64,000 nt of DNA, taken from NCBI GenBank assembly GCA_036770365.1, contig DAIPJH010000002.1, forward strand, positions 33,014 to 97,013, given 5' to 3'. The notes under the pieces were generated by a model. It worked only from the letters and a program-made list of their open reading frames with translations, had not been told where the DNA came from and did not search any database. The position numbers were made by a program, and so were the translations under genes. The DNA is from Rickettsiales bacterium. GTDB taxonomy: Bacteria > Pseudomonadota > Alphaproteobacteria > Rickettsiales > UBA998. This document shows positions 1-13,088 of this stretch, in pieces (positions within the stretch are counted from its first letter, which is position 1; every line of letters starts with the position of its first letter).

Positions 1-416
1 CGATCAAAATCAATTGTATTATTGGGAAAGAATCTATTTCTGCACATTAACTCCGACTTTAAATCTTCCCATGCATTTAATGACTCTATGTCTTCATGCA
101 AAGCAGAATAACTTTTTCTTACAATGTCACCATTGTCTAGCACCTCACCTAAAAGTATTTGAGCTTTAGCTTCATTAATCATGTCACTAGGAAATAATGA
201 CCAATCATACATCAAACATTTTATTAATGGCCTACCACTACTGTCTATTTTATAGACACCTAACAAGAGCTCAAAGTAATCAATCAAATCTTTGGGATTA
301 ATTAAAGGCTGATTATCTGAATCACAAAAATTACATTTTCCACTTTCCTTAGATAATAAGGGGAAAATCTCCTTCTTCAGACCCTTATCGCCAAAACAAT
401 TAGGACAACATTTCAT
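1..416 (-). CDS. 5' part of a CDS running off the left edge: CxxC...CxxC zinc-ribbon N-terminal domain protein of the kind I recall fused to RES (NAD+-targeting) or HEPN effector domains
   Basis: Not in the supplied track because there is no stop inside the window. My own translation of the minus strand from ATG 416-414 gives MKCCPNCFGDKGLKKEIFPLLSKESGKCNFCDSDNQPLINPKDLIDYFELLLGVYKIDSSGRPL...WEDLKSELMCRNRFFPNNTIDFD, 138 codons without a stop. The ATG overlaps the TGA of the upstream gene (TGATG). Confidence 0.6.
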   Translation of the reverse strand, partial: MKCCPNCFGDKGLKKEIFPLLSKESGKCNFCDSDNQPLINPKDLIDYFELLLGVYKIDSSGRPLIKCLMYDWSLFPSDMINEAKAQILLGEVLDNGDIVRKSYSALHEDIESLNAWEDLKSELMCRNRFFPNNTIDFD

Positions 417-1291
417 CAGTCAACTCTCTGAGCAGACAAAAATCTAGCCATTGTTTCAATATGATGACGCATTGAGAGCTTTTTAACATACCCAAGGCCA
501 GGGAAATGTCGTCTTTCATATAAGCTTTTGAATTCCCTAATGGCACCAGTGTCATCAATCTTATTTTGTGGGCTATTAACACATCCCACCAAGAGATTCA
601 AAGCCTCTGCAAATTTTCCAGCTGGATCAGTTGGTGTGTTTTGCCGAATAGATTTAAAATGATGTATGAACATTACACTATCATTGACTTCATCAATGAA
701 AGTTATGTGAATAACAATGGTATATGCAGGACCACCTGTTTCAGAATAATTATCTCCCACTGTCAGAAAATCACCAAACCCCTGCACTCTCTCTAACTCA
801 TAAGTCACATGTAAGTCAGAAAACAACTCTAAATCAGGATAATCACGCCCCCTTTTTTGTTGAAAACCATCTCTAATTAGAACGGCATTGTTATTTCCCT
901 GAACGTCAAAATGCTTCTGATATAATTTACCGCAATTTTTTTCCAAAAAAATATGTTTGGTTATTTCATATCTGGTACTGATTACTTCTTTTAATTCTTT
1001 TGCTTTTGAGAAGCCTGCATGAACTAAAGCTACTTTTCTTGAAATATGACTATCTAAAAAATGACAAACCTCTCCGATTTCAGTCGTTTCAGATAAATAA
1101 AATCCTAAAATTATATTATTAGATGCTTGATATTTAATATTAATCAAGCCATTTATCTCAGCACCATCATCTCTATGATGACCAATTTGAGGATTCATAA
1201 TAACTATTGTTTCTACATTCTTCTCACACAAAACATCTAATGTTTTTTCTAGACCTGACAGCAGTCCTTTTACAGGCTCAATTATTGGCAC
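416..1291 (-). CDS. Beta-protein (PF14350-like) / sce7725-like family protein; the annotated GTG start is provisional and the true start is probably upstream
   Basis: Track ORF of 291 aa. The frame stays open upstream to the TAA of the preceding gene (1378-1376) and encodes ..SPYFRGKQYELITIRECVDIFACNGF. This looks like the conserved N-terminus I associate with Beta_protein/sce7725-type proteins. The stop TGA (418-416) overlaps the next ATG. No search was run. Confidence 0.55.
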   Translation of the reverse strand: MPIIEPVKGLLSGLEKTLDVLCEKNVETIVIMNPQIGHHRDDGAEINGLINIKYQASNNIILGFYLSETTEIGEVCHFLDSHISRKVALVHAGFSKAKELKEVISTRYEITKHIFLEKNCGKLYQKHFDVQGNNNAVLIRDGFQQKRGRDYPDLELFSDLHVTYELERVQGFGDFLTVGDNYSETGGPAYTIVIHITFIDEVNDSVMFIHHFKSIRQNTPTDPAGKFAEALNLLVGCVNSPQNKIDDTGAIREFKSLYERRHFPGLGYVKKLSMRHHIETMARFLSAQRVD

Positions 1292-1375
1292 AAAACCATT
1301 GCATGCGAAAATATCGACGCATTCTCGAATCGTAATTAATTCATATTGCTTGCCACGAAAATAAGGAGATACATC

Positions 1376-2272
1376 TTATATCCACTTTATTGCATCGCAT
1401 AGGGGAGTATTGATTGCACTCAACAAACGACTTGTTTCTTTCTTCTTCAAATTAGTTGATAATACCATAGGCTGAAGTGACTTGGGAATATCATTCATTA
1501 ATTCCTGTAATGGCATTAGATTTCGCGTTACCTTTAAAGTATTTACCATTGCGCGATGCACATCAACAGATTTTAATTTAATATACGTATTCCTCAACTC
1601 CTCGTACAAACATGTATTCGGAACATCAGGAATATCTAACCCCAATTCCTTAAGAATATTTTTTGCTTCCCGTAATTGCATTGAATCAAGAATAGATAGT
1701 GGGTTGGTGCGCTCAGGACGATTAACAGCAGCTCTTACTGTATTAATAGTAAACCGTTTAGTTAGCTTCATTACTCCCACTTCTTTGGGAACTAAATTCA
1801 ATATCGAATCAATATGATTCTCGCCAGCAATTACATTAACCCTAGCAAAAACATTCATATACGAATGCACTTGCTTTTCTAATCTAGCTAAGGAATCTCT
1901 TTCAGATTTAATTTCATAAGCCGTTGCCGTACCATTCAAAATCACATAATCAACTTTACAAGATTCAGCTCTAAACTCTGTTAGCATAGAAGCAGTTCTT
2001 AAATTATGCTCACCCAGCAATACTTTATGAGTTAATGCCGCTTTATATATATATTCATTACGTGCGTGTTTTACCTTTAAAACATCAAATGCTTTATCAA
2101 ACAAAGCCGCAACATTATCTCGTTCAGGACTTAAACCAAAAAGCCCAGTCTCTTTTATCAACTCAATTAGCAAAGGAGAGCGCCCACCAAAAGCCATCTC
2201 TCTGAATACAGATGCAGAGAAAAACCTTGAAGCAGCAGCAATTTGACCTTCTTGCATTTTTAATGCAATCAT
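1376..2272 (-). CDS. sce7726-like protein with a PD-(D/E)XK nuclease-type motif
   Basis: Track ORF of 298 aa. LTEFRAESCKVDYVILNGTATAYEIKSERDSLARL gives the E...D...ExK arrangement of PD-(D/E)XK nucleases. The overall pattern (NEYIYK ... YEIKSERD) matches my memory of the NCBI 'sce7726 family'. Confidence 0.55.
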   Translation of the reverse strand: MIALKMQEGQIAAASRFFSASVFREMAFGGRSPLLIELIKETGLFGLSPERDNVAALFDKAFDVLKVKHARNEYIYKAALTHKVLLGEHNLRTASMLTEFRAESCKVDYVILNGTATAYEIKSERDSLARLEKQVHSYMNVFARVNVIAGENHIDSILNLVPKEVGVMKLTKRFTINTVRAAVNRPERTNPLSILDSMQLREAKNILKELGLDIPDVPNTCLYEELRNTYIKLKSVDVHRAMVNTLKVTRNLMPLQELMNDIPKSLQPMVLSTNLKKKETSRLLSAINTPLCDAIKWI

Positions 2273-2413
2273 TTAGTAACCCTTCACCAATCATATCCTA
2301 ATTTTAACACTATATCTTTCAACCTTCAAAAGGTATCAAAGAAACCAGGCTTACAAATCATATGCCGTCAAATATTGTCACTCTAAAACCATTGATAACA
2401 GTGAGGAAGCCAG

Positions 2414-3232
2414 CTATTTCTTGGCAATATTTACATTTGAGATTGAAATTGCGTCATCCGACTGTTTAAGGTCTACAATTTCACTTTCCGTTTTATACTC
2501 TTCAACAACATCCTCCTTCACCATAACAATCTCCATGTCGTTCATTCTTTCTTTTAGTCCCATATTCAACCTCCCCAATACTCGCTTAATACCCATATGA
2601 GACAGTTTAGTAGAAAACGCTTCGTTTATCGACTTGGCAATCTTTTTATAGGATAGTCCTTCATCGCGTAATTTGAAAATCTCAGTGATGATTTTTACTT
2701 GCTCTGCATTCTCTTTCAAATACTTCTTCCCATCACTTTCCACAATATCAAAACCAAAAGGAATCAACCCTCCCGTATAACGCCCTTGTGACATAGCAAG
2801 CGCTTTGGATTCGGCAATGCGCTCTGCTATGCGTTCACGTTCAAACTGCGCCACCGCAGAAAGAATGGTAAAGACCATAGCGGCAATGCCATTGCCAGTT
2901 ACTTCACCCATATCTAGCAAAAATAGTTTGATTTTGCGCTTCTTGAACTCTTCTAATTGTTGGACGGCATCTCCAGCACTACGGAACATTCTATCTAACT
3001 TTAAGGCGATTACTTCATCACCATCTTTTAAAGTATCTAAGAGCTTTTTGCCGTTTGACCTGTCAGCTAGTGGTTTTGCACCTGATATGCCTTTATCAAC
3101 AAAAAACTTATCAATACCCTTTAGACCCTTTGATTTTGCTTCGCCTTCGATTCGAGAACGTTGAACCTCTAAACTATTTCCATTATCCACTTGGTCGATT
3201 GTGCTTACTCTGCAATATGCGTAGGTTGCCAT
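2414..3232 (-). CDS. serine recombinase (resolvase/invertase family)
   Basis: 272 aa. It has the N-terminal YAYCRVSTIDQ catalytic-Ser motif, plus GDEVIALKLDRMFRS and AQFERERIAERI from the resolvase catalytic domain. An HTH-like segment (LSYKKIAKSIN) is followed by an acidic tail. Confidence 0.9.
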   Translation of the reverse strand: MATYAYCRVSTIDQVDNGNSLEVQRSRIEGEAKSKGLKGIDKFFVDKGISGAKPLADRSNGKKLLDTLKDGDEVIALKLDRMFRSAGDAVQQLEEFKKRKIKLFLLDMGEVTGNGIAAMVFTILSAVAQFERERIAERIAESKALAMSQGRYTGGLIPFGFDIVESDGKKYLKENAEQVKIITEIFKLRDEGLSYKKIAKSINEAFSTKLSHMGIKRVLGRLNMGLKERMNDMEIVMVKEDVVEEYKTESEIVDLKQSDDAISISNVNIAKK

Positions 3233-3325
3233 AATTTCCTCCTATGATTTGTTGGCAGAACCAATCTTAAGAAAGAAAAGACATCCATCTCAATGAAATC
3301 TTCAAAGATAACATGGTCTTAGAAC

Positions 3326-3390
3326 TTAAACACGCGCACTTGCGCTAGATATGTAATATAAGTCTTCATCATGCAAATGCGTGTTTAAGA
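3326..3390. promoter_or_regulatory. 11-bp perfect inverted repeat pair (CTTAAACACGC ... GCGTGTTTAAG) in the divergent spacer between the recombinase and the 507-aa gene; possible operator or recombination site
   Basis: Read directly: arms at 3326-3336 and 3380-3390, with a nested palindrome GCGCA-CT-TGCGC at 3335-3346. It lies in a 331-bp AT-rich divergent intergenic region. Confidence 0.3.
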
Positions 3391-3563
3391 ATATAAACTA
3401 ACTTCTATTATGATTGGACAAAACAAAAACACAACACATCAAAAGCAATTCGCCTATCCTTCTGATTAAAAAAGGCTAAATTGCTTAGATTTTTATAACA
3501 AAAAAATATACGAGCGTTGTATAGAGAAGATATTATAAATAGAGCAGTGTGACATAAGAACCA

Positions 3564-5087
3564 ATGAAATCATCAGATAACATACTTAATATTGTAAAAC
3601 GTGTTGGCCCTTGCTTAACTTCAGATTTAATACAAGAAATGAGAGCTTTAGGTATTAGTGAGATCACAGCACGAAAACGCATACAACGCGAAAAAGATAT
3701 TATCCGATTAGCGGGCTTAAGATTCGAAAAAAATGCACGATTTGTTTATACTGAAGAGCAATACGGCACAGACCTATTTTGGGAGCGTTTAGAAAAAGCA
3801 TTTCATAAAGCAGGGAACTCCTATTGGTGCACAGTTGTTAGATTAAAATCTAAAGGTGGGATTGTTCCAAAATCAAACTTTTCTTGTATTACAGGAAGCC
3901 CTTTAGCTAGGAAACGCCACCTTTCACCACAACGTATTTTAGATCGGCTCATGGCTATCAATCTATTAGAAGAAACGGGTGACGGTGATGTAAAGTATAT
4001 TCAATTCAAACCAAAAAACTTTGTATACATAAACTTATCAGCAATAGAAGCATTAAACCTTGCTGAAAATATAGCTCTACAAAGCATTAGCAATTGGGCT
4101 CGTCGAATTGGGTTTGGCAGTTACAAAAGCTTTGCACTGCGTGGAGATATAAACCCTCCTCAAGTTTCAGGAATAATATGGGATTTAAGTGCACCGAGCT
4201 ATGTTAGACCTCTTGTGCAAATTACTGAAAATAACGCGCGTCCAGGCTTCATTGTGTGTGATATAAATTTACATACTTCTATTGAAGAAGAAGAAGCTGT
4301 AGCATTCATTCGCAAATGCAATCTTGCAAGTGCACCACCTGGTGTTGCTCCTATAATGCCAATGCTTATAGGGTATTCTTTTTCCTCGCAATCATTCTCT
4401 TTATTAAGGTCAAAAGGCATTCTAGCCATAACTATAGAAAATCTATTTGGCGAAGAAGTTGCAAAAGCACTTAAAGATTTAGTTACAATGCTAACCGATT
4501 TAGGGGCAAAAGCATCCGCAGATCCCAGCTATATTATTAAAGTTATGAATAGCTTATCAAAAATAGTGGGAAACACCGATAACTTACTAGGAGCATTATT
4601 TGAACTTGTTATCGGCTGTATAGTAAAGGATGTGGAGGGTGGTTTCTTACAAACTGGAAAGCGCATTACTAATAAGTCAGGCAAACCAGCAGAAATAGAT
4701 GTATATCTTGATATAACCAATAAAAATGAGATTTTAATCATAGAATGCAAGGCAAAAAACCCTTCCTCATTAGTAAGTGCAGATGATTTAAAGAAATGGT
4801 ATGAAGACAGAGTTCCATTGATATATGAAACTTTATCAAATGAAGGCTCATCATCCAAAAAGTTCAAATTTGAATTATGGACAAACAATGACTTTCACCC
4901 CGAAGCACAAACTTGGTTTAACAGCCAAATAAAAGATTGTGACAATTACTCGGTTGAAATAAAGAATGGCGAAGCGATTAAGGCTTATGCCTTGAAACTA
5001 CAAAACACTTCGCTCAGAGATACCCTTAATGAATTCTATTTTAGAAGCAATCTTCAGAAGGCAATCTCAATAAAGAATAAACCATAA
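3564..5087 (+). CDS. winged-helix + Mrr-like (PD-(D/E)XK) restriction-endonuclease-domain protein
   Basis: 507 aa. N-terminal wHTH-like segments are ILNIVKRVGPCLTSDLIQEMRALGISEITARKRIQR and LSPQRILDRLMAINLLEE. The C-terminal GALFELVIGCIV...GKPAEIDVYLD...ILIIECKAK forms an E/D/ExK core resembling Mrr-type catalytic domains. Confidence 0.5.
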   Translation: MKSSDNILNIVKRVGPCLTSDLIQEMRALGISEITARKRIQREKDIIRLAGLRFEKNARFVYTEEQYGTDLFWERLEKAFHKAGNSYWCTVVRLKSKGGIVPKSNFSCITGSPLARKRHLSPQRILDRLMAINLLEETGDGDVKYIQFKPKNFVYINLSAIEALNLAENIALQSISNWARRIGFGSYKSFALRGDINPPQVSGIIWDLSAPSYVRPLVQITENNARPGFIVCDINLHTSIEEEEAVAFIRKCNLASAPPGVAPIMPMLIGYSFSSQSFSLLRSKGILAITIENLFGEEVAKALKDLVTMLTDLGAKASADPSYIIKVMNSLSKIVGNTDNLLGALFELVIGCIVKDVEGGFLQTGKRITNKSGKPAEIDVYLDITNKNEILIIECKAKNPSSLVSADDLKKWYEDRVPLIYETLSNEGSSSKKFKFELWTNNDFHPEAQTWFNSQIKDCDNYSVEIKNGEAIKAYALKLQNTSLRDTLNEFYFRSNLQKAISIKNKP

Positions 5088-5154
5088 ATTTTTGATACTT
5101 TATCAATCTTGATTTATTTTTTTCTTTTACTTCCCTTTCCACAGACAAATCTAT

Positions 5155-5397
5155 AACATCGCTAGTGGAGCAGCAGTTTGTTGCTCTGGGGCTTAAGAAC
5201 CCCTCACTGAGCGGTCTGACGTGTTGCCGAAACGACATGTCGCTTCCTGCCTTTATGGCCGGGAGGCGGCAGTGTATGTCCATGCCTTACGGCTAAAAGA
5301 TTGTCGCGCCATCTCAGTGTGGTTCTTAACTCCCGGCTACCAGTAGCCAAATTTTCAATGAAACTCTTAATGAGTAATTTGGCTGGGGTTAAGAAGC
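5155..5397 (+). ncRNA. candidate structured RNA / 5' leader of the downstream ORF, with a motif, its complement, and a second motif copy over the ribosome-binding region
   Basis: A GC-richer block of about 190 nt sits inside an AT-rich 310-bp spacer. Hairpin 5218-5226/5233-5241 has two G-U pairs and only pairs on the + strand. Hairpin 5247-5272 is capped by the GNRA loop GGGA. The motif GGGGCTTAAGAACC is at 5188-5201, its complement GGTTCTTAACTCCC at 5321-5334, and a third copy GGGGTTAAGAA at 5385-5395, abutting ATG 5398. Confidence 0.35.
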
Positions 5398-5976
5398 ATG
5401 GCTACAGAGATTTATTATCATCCCAACATCATGCGAAAAAGGGAAGCAAGGTTTGTTAAGGAACTCATCAAAAGGGTTAAACCTGATAAAATTATCCACA
5501 GTAACTTTATTCTCCCTGCTTATTTGCTCCTAGAAAGCGTTGAGACTACCGAAATCATTCATTGGGTGAAACATAGCGCTCTTACACATAAACGCCGTAA
5601 TTCTGCTGTCCAAGAGCTAAATTTATGCCCCTCGACAATTAAAGTGGCTATTCACCCCAATCAAATAAGCTGTGATGTGGTCATTCATAACAACGGAAAG
5701 GCGCATTACATCGAGTTTCACGAAGATCAACACGCTCGACTCACTGTTAAACGCCCTGCGGTCATTTACACCCAAAATGGAGAACCTCTAACTGTTCCTC
5801 GCTACATTCAACGTCTAGTTAGGGATGTATGGCGAGTAAAGTACCTTCGCCCCTATAGTGTAATCTGGGCAGATTGGTTTGAACAAAACGGATTAGACAG
5901 TTTTAATTGTCACGCTTCAGCCTATCAAGAATACGTTTTGCCACAACGATGTAATTTTAAAGAACTCGGAATATAA
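5398..5976 (+). CDS. hypothetical protein, possible DUF559/Vsr-like (restriction-endonuclease fold) nuclease
   Basis: 192 aa. CDVVIHNNGKAHYIEFHEDQH resembles the D-x(n)-IE-x-(D/H)-x-x-H core of DUF559/Vsr-like endonucleases. No other family was recognised. Confidence 0.4.
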   Translation: MATEIYYHPNIMRKREARFVKELIKRVKPDKIIHSNFILPAYLLLESVETTEIIHWVKHSALTHKRRNSAVQELNLCPSTIKVAIHPNQISCDVVIHNNGKAHYIEFHEDQHARLTVKRPAVIYTQNGEPLTVPRYIQRLVRDVWRVKYLRPYSVIWADWFEQNGLDSFNCHASAYQEYVLPQRCNFKELGI

Positions 5977-6129
5977 TAAAGGCGATAACTCTAAAATATA
6001 AAGGTTTTTTGCGTAACCACGACATATTTTCCGTTCGCATAACCTACTATTAATTTATAGGTTCATGCAAAAAGTGTAGAATATGCAAAAAGCTTTTTCC
6101 TTTTTACACAAACTACACATACTGCATGC

Positions 6130-7641
6130 TTATATAAATTCATATAAACGTGGGTTTATCACATAGTTCTTTCGATGACATCCTGGTGTATCTCCTTCAC
6201 GTTCTTGCAATGGATACAGCCATTTGCATTCAATTAAATAATCTATCGCTTTTGCTAATCGCAGTCGTTCCCTTATTGGTGCACCCTGCATCCTATAAAA
6301 TTTTGTAAAGTTTATTTTTTCAGGGCGTTGCTTCAATATATACTTCGCAACTAAACGTGCATCCATCTCTTCAGAAGGAACCGCAAAGCCATAAAATACC
6401 CTTCGTGACATCGGAATAAAATATTCCATGATGAGGGTGATGGCATTTTCAATACTTTCTATGGAAATATATTCAAGTTCTTTTACCCCATCCTTTTCTA
6501 CCCATGACAAATATTCAAGAACTAAAGACAAGCGAAGCACCATACCGGGAGTTTTCCCGATAAAAGAGGTCAGTATGCCATTGGTATCTTTTTCCAATTC
6601 AGGAATTTGCATTTTCCATTCATCGAAGACATTTCTAGCAACATTCCTAAGTTTGATAACCTTACTTATAGGTACATTATTTTCATCAACACCCATCTCC
6701 AACATTCTCAATTTATTGAATGCAGCGAGTATAAAATCATTATCTGGCTTTACATCTGGACGTGGTTGAACTTGGTGGATGGGATTCACCACAAGAAACC
6801 TTGCAAAGAAACCATCATCAGGAGAATGTTTAAGTTCTTCCTCAAGCTTTTCTGGTTGTATGCCACCCAACAATGATACGCTGAAAGAGGGTACATGAAC
6901 GGTATTTTCATACCCCACCCTGTCTGCCGAATATGCGTCGCCATCATATGCGGAAAGATATGCTTCTTTATCTGAGCCACCATAACGCATAAAGTTCTTA
7001 ATCAACCCTGCCAACTCATCTCGCAGCATTAAAACCCCTCTGGGATTATCTGCCAGAACATTTCTGAGGGCTTCCACTGTAAGGTCAATAACAACCAACC
7101 TAGTTCTAGCTGGACGCTTAGGTTTTTCTGCTTCTTTTGGTTTTACTGGCAAGAACTCTTTGCCAGCTTTCAATGCTTTCTTGCATTGCTCCGTCCACGC
7201 GTTGAAATGTAATTCAGATACTTCACAATTAGCTTTCCATTCTTTTAATTGTTCTTCATGAGTGGCTACAAATTCACTTTCAATGCACATCAAAGGTTTT
7301 TTCACAATATCCAAGGCAGGGGATTTATTTGTAGATGGCAGTCCAACATGCATCCCCCATAAAATACATGGTTGCTCAAATCCCTCCCATGCCTGTACAC
7401 GCCTTGCATTTCCTATAACCGAAGCTGCACCAACTAAAATAGAAACCATTGCATAATCTACTGAACACCCCTTCACTTTGGATGAAACATTAATGCTTTG
7501 CTGCCAACGCTTGCTAAAGACTTGTAAGGGCACTTCAGGAGCAGAAGGTCTGTAATCCTCTGTAATCGTCATGTCAGGTTTTTCAAACGCTATATCTAAG
7601 CTAACTTTATTTCTAACTAGACGGATTTTTTGCTTAGCCAT
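6130..7641 (-). CDS. DUF3987 (YfjI-like) ATPase/helicase-like protein of integrative elements
   Basis: 503 aa. ILWGMHVGLPSTNKSPAL is P-loop-like and VLMLRDELAGL is Walker-B-like. The overall pattern matches DUF3987 proteins that accompany primases in P4-type elements. Its start overlaps the toprim gene end by 8 nt. Confidence 0.7.
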   Translation of the reverse strand: MAKQKIRLVRNKVSLDIAFEKPDMTITEDYRPSAPEVPLQVFSKRWQQSINVSSKVKGCSVDYAMVSILVGAASVIGNARRVQAWEGFEQPCILWGMHVGLPSTNKSPALDIVKKPLMCIESEFVATHEEQLKEWKANCEVSELHFNAWTEQCKKALKAGKEFLPVKPKEAEKPKRPARTRLVVIDLTVEALRNVLADNPRGVLMLRDELAGLIKNFMRYGGSDKEAYLSAYDGDAYSADRVGYENTVHVPSFSVSLLGGIQPEKLEEELKHSPDDGFFARFLVVNPIHQVQPRPDVKPDNDFILAAFNKLRMLEMGVDENNVPISKVIKLRNVARNVFDEWKMQIPELEKDTNGILTSFIGKTPGMVLRLSLVLEYLSWVEKDGVKELEYISIESIENAITLIMEYFIPMSRRVFYGFAVPSEEMDARLVAKYILKQRPEKINFTKFYRMQGAPIRERLRLAKAIDYLIECKWLYPLQEREGDTPGCHRKNYVINPRLYEFI

Positions 7642-8590
7642 GATATTTCTCCATCAACATGTCATTAAAATCTTTTCCAACGGTGGGATAAACAATATCG
7701 ACAGCCATGCCCTGCAAAAGCAGCCGTCTACTTAATTCGTTAGCGTAATATTGCCCTGCATTATCATTATCTGCAGCAATGGTTACAGACTCGATATTTT
7801 GGGGTGGAGTAAAATTGAGAATGTTACCACCAGACAAACTCCAGACAGCCCAATTAGGCTTCATACACATAAGCGACAGTGCATCTTCTGGGCCTTCTGT
7901 TACTACGATATGAGATTTTGGCGCAGCCAGACGAATTGCCGCGCCCCTTACATCACCCAAAAGCATCTTATTAGGCTTAACGCTTGCCTTACACAGTCCA
8001 TTTTGAGCCAAATAAATTCTAAGAACACCTGCAAAAACATCATCCTCTAAATCAAGACGAAATAATAGAACTGGAAATTTCTTACTACTCGGTACATGTG
8101 TAAGCGATGGTATAAAACGCATCTTCTTTTGAGCTACAGCAGACGTAGTGTTAATATTTCTAGAGCATAAATAGGTCTGAGCTAGAGTATCACAAATTGG
8201 ATATGCATTTTTCCATAAGCACCTAGCATGCTGGATACGCTTAGTTCGAGCTGATGTGGAAGCTTTTTCCAAAACTGGTGGCATCGTATCGTGCACATTG
8301 TAACTGTTATTTTTTGCCCAATTTAATGCCTCTGGAAAACTGCATTTTAATTGCCATTGGATAAGGGAAAAAACATCCCCGCCAACTTGTTGTTCATGAG
8401 AATACCATTCCCCCTCAAATGTAATGGCAAGGCTTCCTCTATTTCCAACTCGAATCTCATAAGCACTAGTTTCTTTATATTCGTTCGGAAACAACATATG
8501 CACTATGTGCTCAATATTTGAAATCAGCCTATTTTTAATCTCACTAATCAACATCGTATTTTCAAAGTTCAGTGTAATTGTGTTCGTCAT
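7634..8590 (-). CDS. toprim-domain primase-like protein
   Basis: 318 aa. The C-terminal IVVTEGPEDALSL ... VTIAADNDNAGQ gives the Toprim E ... DxD signature. Confidence 0.7.
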   Translation of the reverse strand: MTNTITLNFENTMLISEIKNRLISNIEHIVHMLFPNEYKETSAYEIRVGNRGSLAITFEGEWYSHEQQVGGDVFSLIQWQLKCSFPEALNWAKNNSYNVHDTMPPVLEKASTSARTKRIQHARCLWKNAYPICDTLAQTYLCSRNINTTSAVAQKKMRFIPSLTHVPSSKKFPVLLFRLDLEDDVFAGVLRIYLAQNGLCKASVKPNKMLLGDVRGAAIRLAAPKSHIVVTEGPEDALSLMCMKPNWAVWSLSGGNILNFTPPQNIESVTIAADNDNAGQYYANELSRRLLLQGMAVDIVYPTVGKDFNDMLMEKYHG

Positions 8591-8650
8591 CTTCTTCTCC
8601 TGAAATTAAGATTTGTTTCATATAAAACTCAATGAAATCGTAAACTTAAT

Positions 8651-8845
8651 CTAATAAGAATTAGATTTCTGGCGGTCTACCCATACAAAAAACGCTGCTT
8701 CATCAATCAGCACACGCCGACCTACTCGACGAATGCATTCATGAAATCCGTTGGTTTTTGCATAAAAAATGAGGTGTCTTAGCCCACCAATTGACGGCCA
8801 AGAGTGATGATTGTTCCATTCTGGAACAGGGATGTATTTGGTCAT
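8651..8845 (-). CDS. small HTH DNA-binding protein (excisionase/AlpA-like)
   Basis: 64 aa. RRVGRRVLIDEAAFFVWV is like the HTH_17/excisionase-type proteins of integrative elements. It is positioned between the integrase and the replication genes. Confidence 0.5.
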   Translation of the reverse strand: MTKYIPVPEWNNHHSWPSIGGLRHLIFYAKTNGFHECIRRVGRRVLIDEAAFFVWVDRQKSNSY

Positions 8846-8947
8846 GTGTTTCTCCTTAATATCAAGCTTCAGTGCTTGTGACTAAGGATATGCCCTAAAA
8901 GAACCTCTAAAAAAACGTGCGAAGGTGCGAAGCAAGTAGTTCGCAGG

Positions 8948-9625
8948 TTATGATTTCTTGCTAATTTTCTTTAGCCCACCCCTAGCAGATTCTGGTAATC
9001 GGACAAAAGTAGCCATCAACTTAACTTTATTATCAGCCGCATCTTCAAAATCCCCCCAATTATTTAGAAACCATTCACGAAGAGTATCTGCCTTTGGTTG
9101 ATTTTTATAGTCAATCTTGTTGGCTTTTATTGCAGCCTGCATTAATTCCAAATATGGCGTAGTATATTCATCCGCTGTTTTATCAGGAAGACTTTCGTAG
9201 AATATGTCTAAATCATGCTTACTAATTACAACATCACTTTTTTTAATAATAATTGGTTTTTGTTCCGCATGCCTTTTACGTTTAGAGCGACAGCAATAAG
9301 CTTTTTCCTCTTTTTCCGCATACCATTTAAATCTCGGGTCAACAATTTGATTGTCACGTGAGATAGTATAACCAGCAAACGATGTTAAGTGTAATAATTC
9401 CCTTTCTGAGTAACGAACATCTTCAGACATAAATTGCACATCATGCCCATCAACTTTAATAGGTAGGAAATATTCCAGCCACCATCCTAGGCTTAAAACA
9501 GTTGCTCGTAACTTGGATGTTTCAATGTAATGCCACACATCTTCCTCGGTGCATTTTAATATTTTTGCACATTCAGAAACAGGGTAGTAATTCCTCTCAG
9601 GAAGTTTCTTGTATTTATACTTCAT
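8948..9625 (-). CDS. hypothetical protein with N-terminal HTH-like segment
   Basis: 225 aa. YPVSECAKILKCTEEDVWHYIETSKL is HTH-like. The ORF overlaps the integrase 3' end by 11 nt. No family was recognised. Confidence 0.4.
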   Translation of the reverse strand: MKYKYKKLPERNYYPVSECAKILKCTEEDVWHYIETSKLRATVLSLGWWLEYFLPIKVDGHDVQFMSEDVRYSERELLHLTSFAGYTISRDNQIVDPRFKWYAEKEEKAYCCRSKRKRHAEQKPIIIKKSDVVISKHDLDIFYESLPDKTADEYTTPYLELMQAAIKANKIDYKNQPKADTLREWFLNNWGDFEDAADNKVKLMATFVRLPESARGGLKKISKKS

Positions 9626-10691
9626 GTTTTTTATCCTTAAAAATCTTATCGTTCATGCTTTCAACTACTTTGGACGTATGGCTCTCTGCAAGATGTGCAT
9701 AGCGTTTAACCATTTGAAGGGTTTTGTGCCCCAATACCTCTGCAATCTCTGAGGTACTTGCTCCATTCATAGCCAGATAAGAGGCGGCACAATGGCGTAA
9801 ATCATGGAACCTGAAATCTTCAATCTTTGCTCGTTTTAGTGCTGTTTCCCATGCTCTTTTAATTTCTATGGGCTGGCAGATTTTCTCACTTGGAAAAACA
9901 AAATCACAGTTTGAGTTTCGCTGCTCAAAATGCGCTTTCATTAAATCATACGCATACCCTTTCAAAGGCAATGAACGACGCTCATCATTTTTTGTTTCAT
10001 TCAATGTGACTCTTCCACGCACTAAATCCACATCTTTCCATTTGATATGAAGAATCTCGCTTTTTCTTGCCCCTGTGCTAAGCGCAAGAACAACAATGAC
10101 ATAAAGGTGGGGATTATCACTTTGATGACATGCCACGAGTAAACGCTCACGTTCATCATCATCAAGAAAACGTACTCTCCCTCTATTTTCAGGAAACTTT
10201 GACACCTTTCGAACTGGATTTTCCTGAACCCATTCCCAATCATTGATGGCAATGGTATAAACAGCTCCCAACGCTGTCATGTAGCGATTGGCTGTTGTTG
10301 CCCCTCGCGTGCGCTTGGTATCCGAGGTGCTATCGAATAACTTGCTTCGATGTTCTGCAATCAATGAAGAAGTAATATTAGATAACGAATACTCGCCAAT
10401 TTGATTCTTCCACCAATTCAAATAACCTCTTTGATTGGCGGTACTCTTCTTTTTGGTTGGTAGTATCTCAGAAATGTAGCGATCAATCATATCTGCTACG
10501 GTTTTTTTCTTGGCTTCCGTATTTTTGAAATATCGGCGTTCACGCATAGAGGCTTCAGTTGCCTGCGCCCACTTCTTTGCATCCGTTTTACGTTCAAAAG
10601 TAGCCGTTTCGGCTGGATAACCCTTTATCCTCACCTTAACCTGATAGGTAAGCTCGCCTCGGCTATTTTTGCGCTCAATGATGGTAGCCAT
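9615..10691 (-). CDS. tyrosine-type site-specific integrase
   Basis: 358 aa. ALSTGARKSEIL (Arg box), FRFHDLRHCAASYLAMNG and LGHKTLQMVKRYAHL (HxxR ... Y) give the catalytic signature. The start codon is 76 bp from the tRNA 3' end. Confidence 0.9.
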   Translation of the reverse strand: MATIIERKNSRGELTYQVKVRIKGYPAETATFERKTDAKKWAQATEASMRERRYFKNTEAKKKTVADMIDRYISEILPTKKKSTANQRGYLNWWKNQIGEYSLSNITSSLIAEHRSKLFDSTSDTKRTRGATTANRYMTALGAVYTIAINDWEWVQENPVRKVSKFPENRGRVRFLDDDERERLLVACHQSDNPHLYVIVVLALSTGARKSEILHIKWKDVDLVRGRVTLNETKNDERRSLPLKGYAYDLMKAHFEQRNSNCDFVFPSEKICQPIEIKRAWETALKRAKIEDFRFHDLRHCAASYLAMNGASTSEIAEVLGHKTLQMVKRYAHLAESHTSKVVESMNDKIFKDKKHEV

Positions 10692-10767
10692 TTGTCATTT
10701 ACTGTCCCATGAGTGTCCCATAGAACAAAAATCTAACTCTTATATCTGGCTAAGTCTATGAAAAGTT

Positions 10768-10947
<180 letters not shown>

Positions 10948-11234: not shown

Positions 11235-13088
11235 TTAGAAATTCATTGAAGCATTCGCAGATGGCACTTGCACCTGAGAAACAGCAACATTGTGTGCCAC
11301 TACCGTATTTTGTGGTACATTAGACGCCAAGGTTACGCCGTGTTGTTGACATGTTCCTGACACACAACATGGTTTTACTTTTGATGCACCTTGTGCATCC
11401 ACGATCACACGCTGCGCCTCTTCATACGCTTGTTGGTGGATCTGCTGTTCGTTCTGCGCCCGCACACGCAAGGACTGAAGTTCCTCGCGCACATGTGGCA
11501 TATAAATCTGCTCATAAATTGCAGTGGTATTCGGCACAATGAATTGCAACATTTCTGGATTATCTTTTAAGCGGACATAACGCAGTTCAGCGTAACGCGA
11601 ATTAATCTCCTGAAAACGACTTTCTGACGAATGATACCCGCCAGTATAGTAGGTTTCACTACCAATTTGCAGCCGTTCATGTGCATGCTGCACCATATTG
11701 AAGAAAGTTTCCATGCTCGCACCTTGCAAAGACTGCGTAAGGGTTTTACCATTTACACTGAATTCTGGAGTGTTAAGCTGCGTGGTGATGCGCTGACGCG
11801 TTGCTTCATCTCCCGTTTTCCACGTATCCATCAAGGATTTTAATACGCCAAGACGCTGTGCTTCAGCCTTTGAAAGTGCATCCACTGTCTCGATTTCTTG
11901 TTTAGTAAACCGATTTGGCAACAGCAAATGATGCGCTTCATGCACCACCACACGCGAAAATTCTTCTGCATCATGCTTTGCCGCGACAAAAATCATATAC
12001 ACACCGTTTACATCATCAGGATTTTGCTTCACGCAACGATGAAATCCATACGCATTGGATTTAGGAGCAAGCGCATCCACTGTGACTTCTGGGGTATAAG
12101 CAAAGTCTGTCTTCAGTAGGTATAATGTTTCCGCAAGTTCGGCTGGCAATAACCGCAACGCCGCGAGCATCTTCTGCTCACATTCCGCGACGTGAGGTGG
12201 CGTTTCTTTGTTGACGGAAGTCGCCATCACAGACTGCCACTTGGCATCCACTCGAGCATCTAACCCCGCAGCGACTCGCTCTGCAACACCTGCCGCTTCC
12301 ATACCTGCCAATGCGCCTCCAGCCTTCCAACTTTGGATCATATTGGCAGAGAAATGGTGATCGGAAAGATAATTAGTCAAACGCGTAACATCACCGAGAT
12401 ACTGTTCACTCACACCAAGTAACCGCCCCACACCAACAACACCCTCTAGCTTTGCGGCTTTTTCAAATTCGGGGGTCGAGACCCCTAATTCCCGCGACAA
12501 ACGCACTACCAACGCATCAGGGGTTTTGGAATCGGCAGCAAATTGATAGGGCTTTTCAGCATAACCACGAAGACGCAATGCCTCTTCTACGATCAAATAC
12601 ATCCCTAAGGCATTTTTTGCCTGTTCCACCATCTCTGGGTGACGACGTGCATCTTTTTTTTCATCCAGATATTTACTGATCACGGCAGCAAACGGCTGAT
12701 CTTGATTTGTTAACTCCTCTTCCACTTCAGGAGAAACACCCTTCGTCTTATGCAGCAAAAGATTAGTCTGCCGACGCGCTACCATCGCAGCTTCTGCTTC
12801 TAAACTAAGCGGCACAAGGCTTCCGAGCAGATTCGCCACGGGTGCTTTATTCGTATCAGCAAAAAAACTCGGATAGTCCATCTTATAGGCCATGCGAATC
12901 TTGTCCGTCACCGCCACGGCATTTTCTGGCTTAATGTCATCGGGGTGAATCAGCAATAAAGGGTCTTTAGGATCAATCAAGGAGTGATGCTGGATATGGA
13001 TATGACGATCACGCAAGATATCAGATACATCAAACCCCTGCACAGGATGAGAATTCATCATTGGTATTTGAGCTATTGTTTGATTCAT
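11235..13088 (-). CDS. hypothetical 617-aa protein with a single HExxH zinc-metalloprotease-type motif
   Basis: Long track ORF. VVVHEAHHLLLP is the only recognisable motif. There is no signal peptide or TM segment obvious by eye, and the C-terminus is Gln/Val-rich. Confidence 0.55.
   Translation of the reverse strand: MNQTIAQIPMMNSHPVQGFDVSDILRDRHIHIQHHSLIDPKDPLLLIHPDDIKPENAVAVTDKIRMAYKMDYPSFFADTNKAPVANLLGSLVPLSLEAEAAMVARRQTNLLLHKTKGVSPEVEEELTNQDQPFAAVISKYLDEKKDARRHPEMVEQAKNALGMYLIVEEALRLRGYAEKPYQFAADSKTPDALVVRLSRELGVSTPEFEKAAKLEGVVGVGRLLGVSEQYLGDVTRLTNYLSDHHFSANMIQSWKAGGALAGMEAAGVAERVAAGLDARVDAKWQSVMATSVNKETPPHVAECEQKMLAALRLLPAELAETLYLLKTDFAYTPEVTVDALAPKSNAYGFHRCVKQNPDDVNGVYMIFVAAKHDAEEFSRVVVHEAHHLLLPNRFTKQEIETVDALSKAEAQRLGVLKSLMDTWKTGDEATRQRITTQLNTPEFSVNGKTLTQSLQGASMETFFNMVQHAHERLQIGSETYYTGGYHSSESRFQEINSRYAELRYVRLKDNPEMLQFIVPNTTAIYEQIYMPHVREELQSLRVRAQNEQQIHQQAYEEAQRVIVDAQGASKVKPCCVSGTCQQHGVTLASNVPQNTVVAHNVAVSQVQVPSANASMNF

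Follow-up and report, generated by a model that had tools for sequence, protein, structure and literature searches.

What kind of system is formed by three abutting genes of the minus strand was the question raised by the first 2272 bases of a 64,000-nucleotide stretch of DNA from a Rickettsiales bacterium (GenBank assembly GCA_036770365.1, contig DAIPJH010000002.1, positions 33,014 to 97,013), the whole of which is referred to here as the window. The first open reading frame (ORF), g1 (1376..2272), encodes a 298-amino-acid (aa) protein that is sce7726-family and P4 cII-like; the second, g2, is an sce7725-family gene with a conserved frame at 416..1375, or 416..1291 (291 aa) when read from a GTG codon; and the third, g3 (1..416), consists of the first 138 codons of a 339-aa RES-domain protein, the rest of which is cut off by the window edge. 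An earlier interpretation made from the letters alone (the sequence-only reading) had described three tightly packed minus-strand genes at these positions, with the third ATG overlapping the second stop, and had suggested a conflict system without published precedent. The layout was confirmed: position 416 belongs both to the stop codon of g2 and to the ATG of g3 (gttgacTGATGaaa), and a one-base spacer separates the g1 stop TAA (1378..1376) from an ATG at 1374. Judged from the family scores of g1 and g2 and from related proteins numbering in the thousands, these are real genes and not chance ORFs. The answer that we consider probable is that the triad constitutes one self-contained anti-phage or abortive-infection conflict cassette, an effector-swapped relative of gop-beta-cII, the anti-phage system of the phage satellite P4 (Ghisotti 1990; Rousset 2022).

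When compared with NCBIfam, g1 scored 171.8 bits (E = 1.4e-50) against sce7726_fam (NF033832), for which the curated cut-off is 70 bits, and thus belongs to the family to which it had been assigned. It matched one of the PADLOC models, 'cll' (E = 4.6e-20), which we take as the P4 cII model because P4 cII itself scores 3e-113 on it. The same relationship was recovered by BLASTP of g1 against P4 cII (26% identity, E = 1e-10), by the RefSeq name of P4 cII ('sce7726 family protein') and by a precomputed Pfam match of g1 and its relatives to PF26915 (Phage_P4_cII). An alignment of 84 sequences was assembled from the g1 proteins of triads, P4 cII, and the cII homologues of Pseudomonas, Methylibium and Acinetobacter; residues E99, D108, E120, K122, D126 and G166 were 99-100% conserved across it. 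The E..D..ExK core that had been picked out by eye corresponds to the first four of these residues, which conform to the PD-(D/E)xK signature (E...D...(D/E)xK) and are common to both branches of the family, the triad g1 proteins and the P4 cII homologues. By sequence comparison, then, g1 is established as a homologue of P4 cII. The sce7725/sce7726 pair, described earlier as having no assigned function, is thus not without functional context, since P4 cII is an sce7726-family protein and gop-beta-cII has been shown to be anti-phage (PMC9122126). A sequence search of the PDB yielded no relative for g1, g2 or g3.

The family assignment of g2 held equally well, as its frame 416..1375 scored 316.4 bits (E = 2.7e-94; cut-off 60 bits) against sce7725_fam (NF033831) in a match that spanned profile positions 3-312 of 312. 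The homologues of this family were all 311-320 aa in length with the N-terminus MY[HYF]PYFRGKQ[YF]EL, the reported YFRGKQYEL string is present in g2, and proteins of the g2 type (315 aa) share ~60 invariant residues, among which His, Asp, Lys and Arg are numerous. Because of these residues, the role of a labile antitoxin is less likely for g2 than that of an enzyme or of a complex regulator. The N-terminal string had been associated with a Beta protein of phage T4. The phage named was the wrong one, as Beta belongs to the satellite phage P4 and 'T4 beta protein' is a misnomer carried by some UniRef cluster names; the association with Beta itself stood at the level of remote homology and fold and failed at the level of a PF14350 match. 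BLASTP of g2 against P4 Beta found nothing, and neither did a profile of 53 sce7725 sequences compared with P4 Beta alone or with 46 Beta homologues, for which secondary structure was no help. Once 130 representatives of the 50%-identity library had been added, the profile comprised 183 sequences (Neff 5.3), and hhalign then aligned it with 117 Beta sequences at E = 2.8e-6 over 216 columns, with a probability of 88% (93% with secondary structure). The alignment begins at a common Y-x-P-x-[FL]-R-x-[KR]-x-x-E motif (YfPylRGKQfEL in sce7725 and YYPaLRTRsAEl in Beta) and also pairs GFGDF with iYGDH; among the controls, unrelated profiles gave E values of 0.2-0.85 and the reversed Beta profile gave 0.01. 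Weak reciprocal matches of hidden Markov models (HMMs) further connect the two families.

Predicted structures pointed in the same direction. The AlphaFold2 (AF2) model of g2, computed with 53 homologues, was of high quality (predicted local distance difference test, pLDDT, 91; predicted template-modelling score, pTM, 0.91), and a Foldseek search of the PDB returned generic TIM-like beta/alpha barrel matches only (best E = 5e-3), which single out no enzyme family. Against BFVD the model had a single significant match (E <= 0.001), protein A0A5J6TRS2 of Gordonia phage Powerball (E = 2e-7, template-modelling score, TM, 0.64), and the AF2 model (pLDDT 90.6) of a homologue with 96% identity to P4 Beta again had A0A5J6TRS2 as its single significant match (E = 2.8e-12, TM 0.70). 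The secondary-structure elements of the g2 and Beta models follow one another in equal order over the whole length. Profile-profile similarity and fold thus both place g2 in the Beta superfamily, and sce7725 is, we conclude, remotely homologous to P4 Beta while standing outside formal PF14350 membership. A0A5J6TRS2, a 379-aa uncharacterised actinophage protein, is probably a third, phage-carried branch of this superfamily. Five of the 53 sce7725 proteins matched Pfam DacZ_T ('probable sensor domain'; best E = 9.4e-5), and NCBI records call some members of the family 'ATP-binding protein'. Matches of the sce7725 profile or g2 to the HSP90 N-domain (E = 0.2-0.9) were dismissed as noise, and a PADLOC Csm6 match to g2 (E = 0.012) was at chance level.

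The full-length sequence of g3 was taken from a public Logan assembly contig of run SRR3571354 (L001), which is identical to the window across the shared 5119 nucleotides (nt). Because L001 carries the whole of g3, the choice between RES and HEPN for its effector half could be settled as RES: residues 171-321, in a domain that lies beyond the window edge, matched Pfam RES (PF08808) with 51.2 bits (E = 1.8e-13; cut-off 23.2), as had been guessed. Within this domain the family shows no variation at G186, Y195, E208 and S303 and almost none at R187, giving the conserved pattern GRANPxGxPxLY...E...S. The double CxxC noticed at the N-terminus was found as C4, C7, C28 and C31, a Zn ribbon whose cysteines are invariant in the family, and the NRFFP segment is likewise present. 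The proposal that such a Zn ribbon accompanies a HEPN/RES-NTD1 domain holds at the level of the family: g3 itself matched HEPN_RES_NTD1 (PF18870) weakly (15.4 bits, E = 0.024; gathering threshold 27.4 bits), whereas PF18870 was found at E <= 0.1 in 28 of 36 relatives (best E = 1.4e-5) and RES in all 36, and a precomputed PF18870 match exists for some g3 homologues. Anantharaman et al. described in 2013 (PMC3710099) fusions of NTD1 to RES that bear an additional Zn ribbon at the N-terminus. None of the PADLOC models matched g3. A few related genome loci (L019, L020, L070) have a shortened RES ORF, or one that lies out of place with respect to g2, which suggests that the effector gene also decays occasionally.

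The architecture of g3 resembles that of the aRES proteins, stand-alone NTD1+RES proteins that defend E. coli by converting NAD+ to ADP-ribose-1''-phosphate (ADPR-1''-P) and nicotinamide (10.64898/2026.01.28.702374) and that deplete NAD+ upon infection (Osterman et al., bioRxiv 2026, 10.64898/2026.01.28.702374). Taken together, the resemblance of g1 to cII, that of g2 to Beta and the aRES-like architecture of g3 argue for a module in which a cII/beta core carries an aRES-type effector in the place of Gop. Under such a scheme g3 would be the effector, released or activated during infection, and, by analogy with Xre-RES toxins and aRES proteins, would phosphorolyse NAD+ to ADPR-1''-phosphate and nicotinamide; the resulting loss of NAD+ would stop the growth of the infected cell. 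The PD-(D/E)xK protein g1 and the strongly conserved, TIM-barrel-like, probably enzymatic g2 would serve as the sensing and regulating core; P4 couples this core to the small toxin Gop, and one Firmicute-like clade has it without RES.

Whether the three genes belong to a single system was addressed from their distribution. A genome scan with the sce7725 profile, restricted to one genome per species, confirmed at least 570 loci; the neighbourhoods of the best 80 of these were checked with phmmer for g1, g2 and g3. The order g1>g2>g3, on the same strand and with abutting genes, was found in all 80, from at least eight phyla; carriers among the at least 570 species-representative genomes include Proteobacteria, Nitrospinota, Thermodesulfobacteriota, Planctomycetota, Acidobacteriota, Bacteroidota and Actinomycetota. 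The sce7725 profile matches 1458 clusters at 50% identity, and the homologues of g2 and g3 show parallel identity ranges and lie on the same contigs. In a second scan, of metagenomes, seeded with a distant Firmicute-type homologue ~27% identical to g2 of the window, the triad was present in 51 of 80 distant loci and g1-g2 stood alone in 22 despite room downstream. A Firmicute-like clade, which includes L092, has g1-g2 without RES, and one locus (L093) retained the triad at 27% g2 identity. The neighbourhoods of the triad were mutually unrelated, being an integrative and conjugative element (ICE) in Salmonella houtenae, a mobile-element-rich Rhizobiaceae region (relaxase, resolvase, Fic, ArdA, a group II intron and IS110) and, at two loci, ordinary metabolic genes. 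Salmonella enterica subsp. houtenae ATCC BAA-1581 has an intact triad (SEHO0A_04578-04580, locus L094), whose g2 shares 46% identity with that of the window. The tight co-occurrence that had been anticipated is therefore real: g1, g2 and g3 travel together, in fixed order, across phyla.

These distributions bear directly on the alternative that two independent systems merely adjoin, namely a stand-alone aRES protein (g3) and a separate g1-g2 system with the g1 nuclease as its own effector. Such an arrangement would be in keeping with the solitary action of aRES proteins and with the occurrence of g1-g2 without RES in the 22 metagenome loci and L092, yet it accounts poorly for a fixed order with overlaps or gaps of one or a few nt in the 80 genome loci and 51 metagenome loci across phyla, for the parallel identities of g2 and g3 homologues on the same contigs, and for the movement of the cassette as a single unit into unrelated neighbourhoods; we regard it as very unlikely. 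In the RES-less Firmicute-like clade, a GNAT acetyltransferase gene often follows g2 and sometimes overlaps its end (5992..6504 in L092; also L110-L117, L124, L126, L128 and L129), and it stays in place at g2 identities of 50-100%, also at loci that have different genes upstream. As GNAT toxins exist, its product may serve as another type of effector, or the gene may be no more than a conserved neighbour.

The copy of g2 in the window differs from its homologues at the very start of the gene, a feature that the sequence-only reading did not mention. In 70 sce7725 loci the gene opens with ATG TAY NNY CCN TAY TTY CGN, the third codon being CAY, TAY or TTY, whereas the window reads ATG TAT CT CCT TAT TTT CGT, which amounts to a 1-nt deletion in codon 3. 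Comparison with these 70 homologous loci places the lesion at 1367..1374 on the minus strand, with the family-type ATG at 1374..1372 and the deletion between 1368 and 1367. The ATG at 1374 opens a 12-codon dead-end frame, and the conserved frame has no ATG, GTG or TTG ahead of the GTG at 1291. Because the deletion puts the family ATG out of frame, gene callers resort to this GTG, from which both the NCBI and the Logan gene calls begin g2 (P0001, 291 aa); a start there drops 28 residues, including the invariant P4, G8, E12, L13, R17 and F28. The deletion site is not a homopolymer and is identical in the window and L001 assemblies, so the deletion is probably real, though the two assemblies may share reads. 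Since g2 has lost its start and conserved N-terminus, the gene in this copy is probably defective and the module probably impaired. Two ways around the lesion were considered and rejected: a read-through fusion of g1 and g2 across the stop codon, since it is the deletion alone that brings the g1 stop into the g2 frame, and programmed -1 frameshifting in g2, for which no slippery heptamer is present at ATG TAT CTC C.

Such a lesion raises the possibility that the window copy is a decaying remnant without present function, whatever the family does elsewhere. The removal of the start and of 28 conserved residues from the canonical product, seen in two assemblies, speaks for decay; g1 and g3, on the other hand, are full-length (g3 in L001) and retain every family-invariant residue, the 319 remaining codons of g2 form an open frame without further lesions, and both assemblies may derive from the same reads. 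The intactness of the remaining g2 frame indicates that the mutation is recent, or is an assembly error, or is bypassed. For this copy we find the case for a remnant and the case against it evenly balanced.

The lesion is also informative about a second alternative, in which the triad is a tripartite toxin-antitoxin (TA) or addiction module, with RES as toxin, the Beta-like g2 as antitoxin and g1 as regulator, that stabilises a mobile element or induces persistence and does not have phage defence as its purpose. In its favour, RES proteins are among the classic toxins of TA systems, the first description of Gop/Beta was of a toxin-antitoxin-like pair (PMC9122126), and mobile DNA carries the cassette: an island in the window, an ICE and a relaxase-bearing element at other loci. 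An intact g3 beside a broken g2 nevertheless hints that g2 is not a simple antitoxin required to keep RES harmless. This configuration also fits aRES proteins being harmless until infection; alternatively, g3, being coupled to g2, is simply untranslated in this copy. Moreover, the cassette contains no helix-turn-helix (HTH)/Xre-type antitoxin or DNA-binding gene, g2 with its 315 aa and ~60 invariant residues does not resemble a labile antitoxin, many loci have unremarkable chromosomal surroundings, and the same RES architecture acts as a defence protein in aRES. An addiction module is thus, in our judgement, an unlikely explanation.

The preferred interpretation, a single effector-swapped defence cassette, has to be held against several observations that weigh against it. 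There is no Pfam match of any kind for g2 and none to Beta_protein (PF14350) at E <= 0.1; g2 falls short of the gathering threshold of that family (27 bits), on which P4 Beta itself scores 191 bits, and only 1 of 53 sce7725 homologues matched it (E = 0.038). The PADLOC 'beta' model did not match g2 either. BLASTP of g3 against Gop returned nothing, the cassette contains no Gop-like gene, and its co-directional arrangement (cII-like first, Beta-like second, RES third) is not that of gop-beta-cII. That g1 acts as a nuclease, and g2 as an enzyme of any kind, is a prediction from conserved residues only. As aRES proteins act alone, g3 might need neither g1 nor g2. Several triad loci are situated among housekeeping genes, the triad is scarce on viral contigs (13 loci in IMG/VR), and the copy in the window carries the g2 frameshift.

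The surroundings of the cassette agree with the mobile-island location that had been proposed. It lies at the far end of a low-GC (guanine plus cytosine) island (34-40% GC, as against 45-49% in the rest of the window) that is integrated at tRNA-Met, carries an integrase and a resolvase, and has its left end beyond the window. Delineated by GC, Pfam matches and the tRNA, the island context (2414..10844, minus strand) includes, by Pfam, a serine resolvase (2414..3232), a DUF3987 protein (6130..7641), a Toprim/DUF7146 primase-like protein (7634..8590) and a tyrosine integrase (9615..10691), followed by the tRNA-Met (10768..10844); the combination of integrase and primase is reminiscent of satellite-like or mobilisable islands. 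Three further ORFs of the island, of 507 aa (3564..5087, plus strand), 192 aa (5398..5976, plus strand) and 225 aa (8948..9625, minus strand), and one of 617 aa just outside it beyond the tRNA (11235..13088, minus strand), had no Pfam, NCBIfam or PADLOC match. The C-terminal part of the 507-aa ORF, which is situated between the resolvase and the replication genes, contains a D...ExK-like stretch (EIDVYLD...ILIIECKAK), and the gene could encode another PD-(D/E)xK nuclease and be further cargo or a defence gene. In the 141-nt gap upstream of g1, a sigma-70-like match (TTGAAG-17-TAAAAT with TG; 2301..2329, minus strand) marks a possible operon promoter; it is a consensus match only, and such matches are no more frequent in the region than in shuffled sequence.

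A broader interpretation, which we put forward tentatively and consider rather doubtful, is that the pair of cII-like and Beta-like proteins is an ancient, portable infection-sensing core that is joined to Gop in P4-like satellites, to an aRES-type NADase in the triad, and possibly to nothing or to GNAT in the Firmicute clade, and that the Beta-like protein is an enzyme making or destroying a small-molecule or nucleic-acid signal that gates the effector and not a passive antitoxin. If this were so, the triad would offer a tractable route to the mechanism of gop-beta-cII and would be the first aRES-type effector under the control of a separate sensor. The cassette is common, and PADLOC v2 models detect its cII-like gene alone. 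The link to gop-beta-cII and aRES suggests a testable function for two orphan NCBIfam families, would make gop-beta-cII a minor offshoot of a far larger superfamily whose effectors can be exchanged, and casts doubt on the idea that NTD1-RES proteins invariably work by themselves; confirmation of NAD+ depletion would raise the estimate of how many bacteria defend themselves by this means.

One of the known systems closest to the triad is gop-beta-cII, which protects against lambda and P1 and in which Gop becomes toxic when Beta is missing (PMC9122126); orf184, a coliphage gene, sets off cell death by way of this system (10.1101/2023.04.06.535777). Both are three-gene cassettes on mobile islands, g1 and cII share the sce7726 family, the E-D-ExK signature and a match to the PADLOC cll model, and g2 is a remote Beta homologue with the same fold and N-terminal motif. 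They differ in the effector, in that the cassette has a 339-aa RES protein where P4 has the toxin Gop, and in its placement, downstream of the Beta-like gene in the cassette and upstream in P4; P4 and its relatives in Pseudomonas, Methylibium and Acinetobacter have a small gop ORF (109-161 aa), Beta and a convergent cII. The taxonomic spread of the cassette is also far wider. By the PADLOC/DefenseFinder definition of gop-beta-cII ('gop_beta_cll'), which combines the gop, beta and cll models, the triad has cll and neither beta nor gop.

The likeness of g3 to aRES is one of architecture: it has RES preceded by a HEPN/RES-NTD1-like region, which scores below threshold in g3 itself and matches PF18870 in most relatives, its 339 aa fall in the 300-600 aa range, and its catalytic-type RES residues are conserved. 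In contrast, aRES proteins are reported to lack operonic links, whereas g3 overlaps g2 and so does not stand alone, is translationally coupled to two conserved upstream genes in every locus examined, and has an extra N-terminal Zn ribbon. With the Xre-RES TA systems (PrsT/MbcT/NatT) the cassette shares the NAD+-degrading RES toxin domain; it differs from them in having no Xre/HTH or COG5642-type antitoxin, in the Zn ribbon and NTD1-like extensions of g3, and in its entirely different partner genes, g2 and g1 (PF26915). A further case of a Beta-type protein within a defence system is PD-Lambda-2, a three-gene E. coli system whose component C is Beta-like: P4 Beta matches the PD-Lambda-2_C models (8e-14), one sce7725 member does so weakly (0.0048), and g2 itself does not. 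In the literature library searched, we found no description of the triad as a system, the names sce7725 and sce7726 appearing only in genome-annotation mentions. The suggestion of an undescribed system is accordingly true only of this three-part combination; its parts, recognisable through the PADLOC cll match of g1 and the aRES-like architecture of g3, belong to two experimentally supported defence systems.

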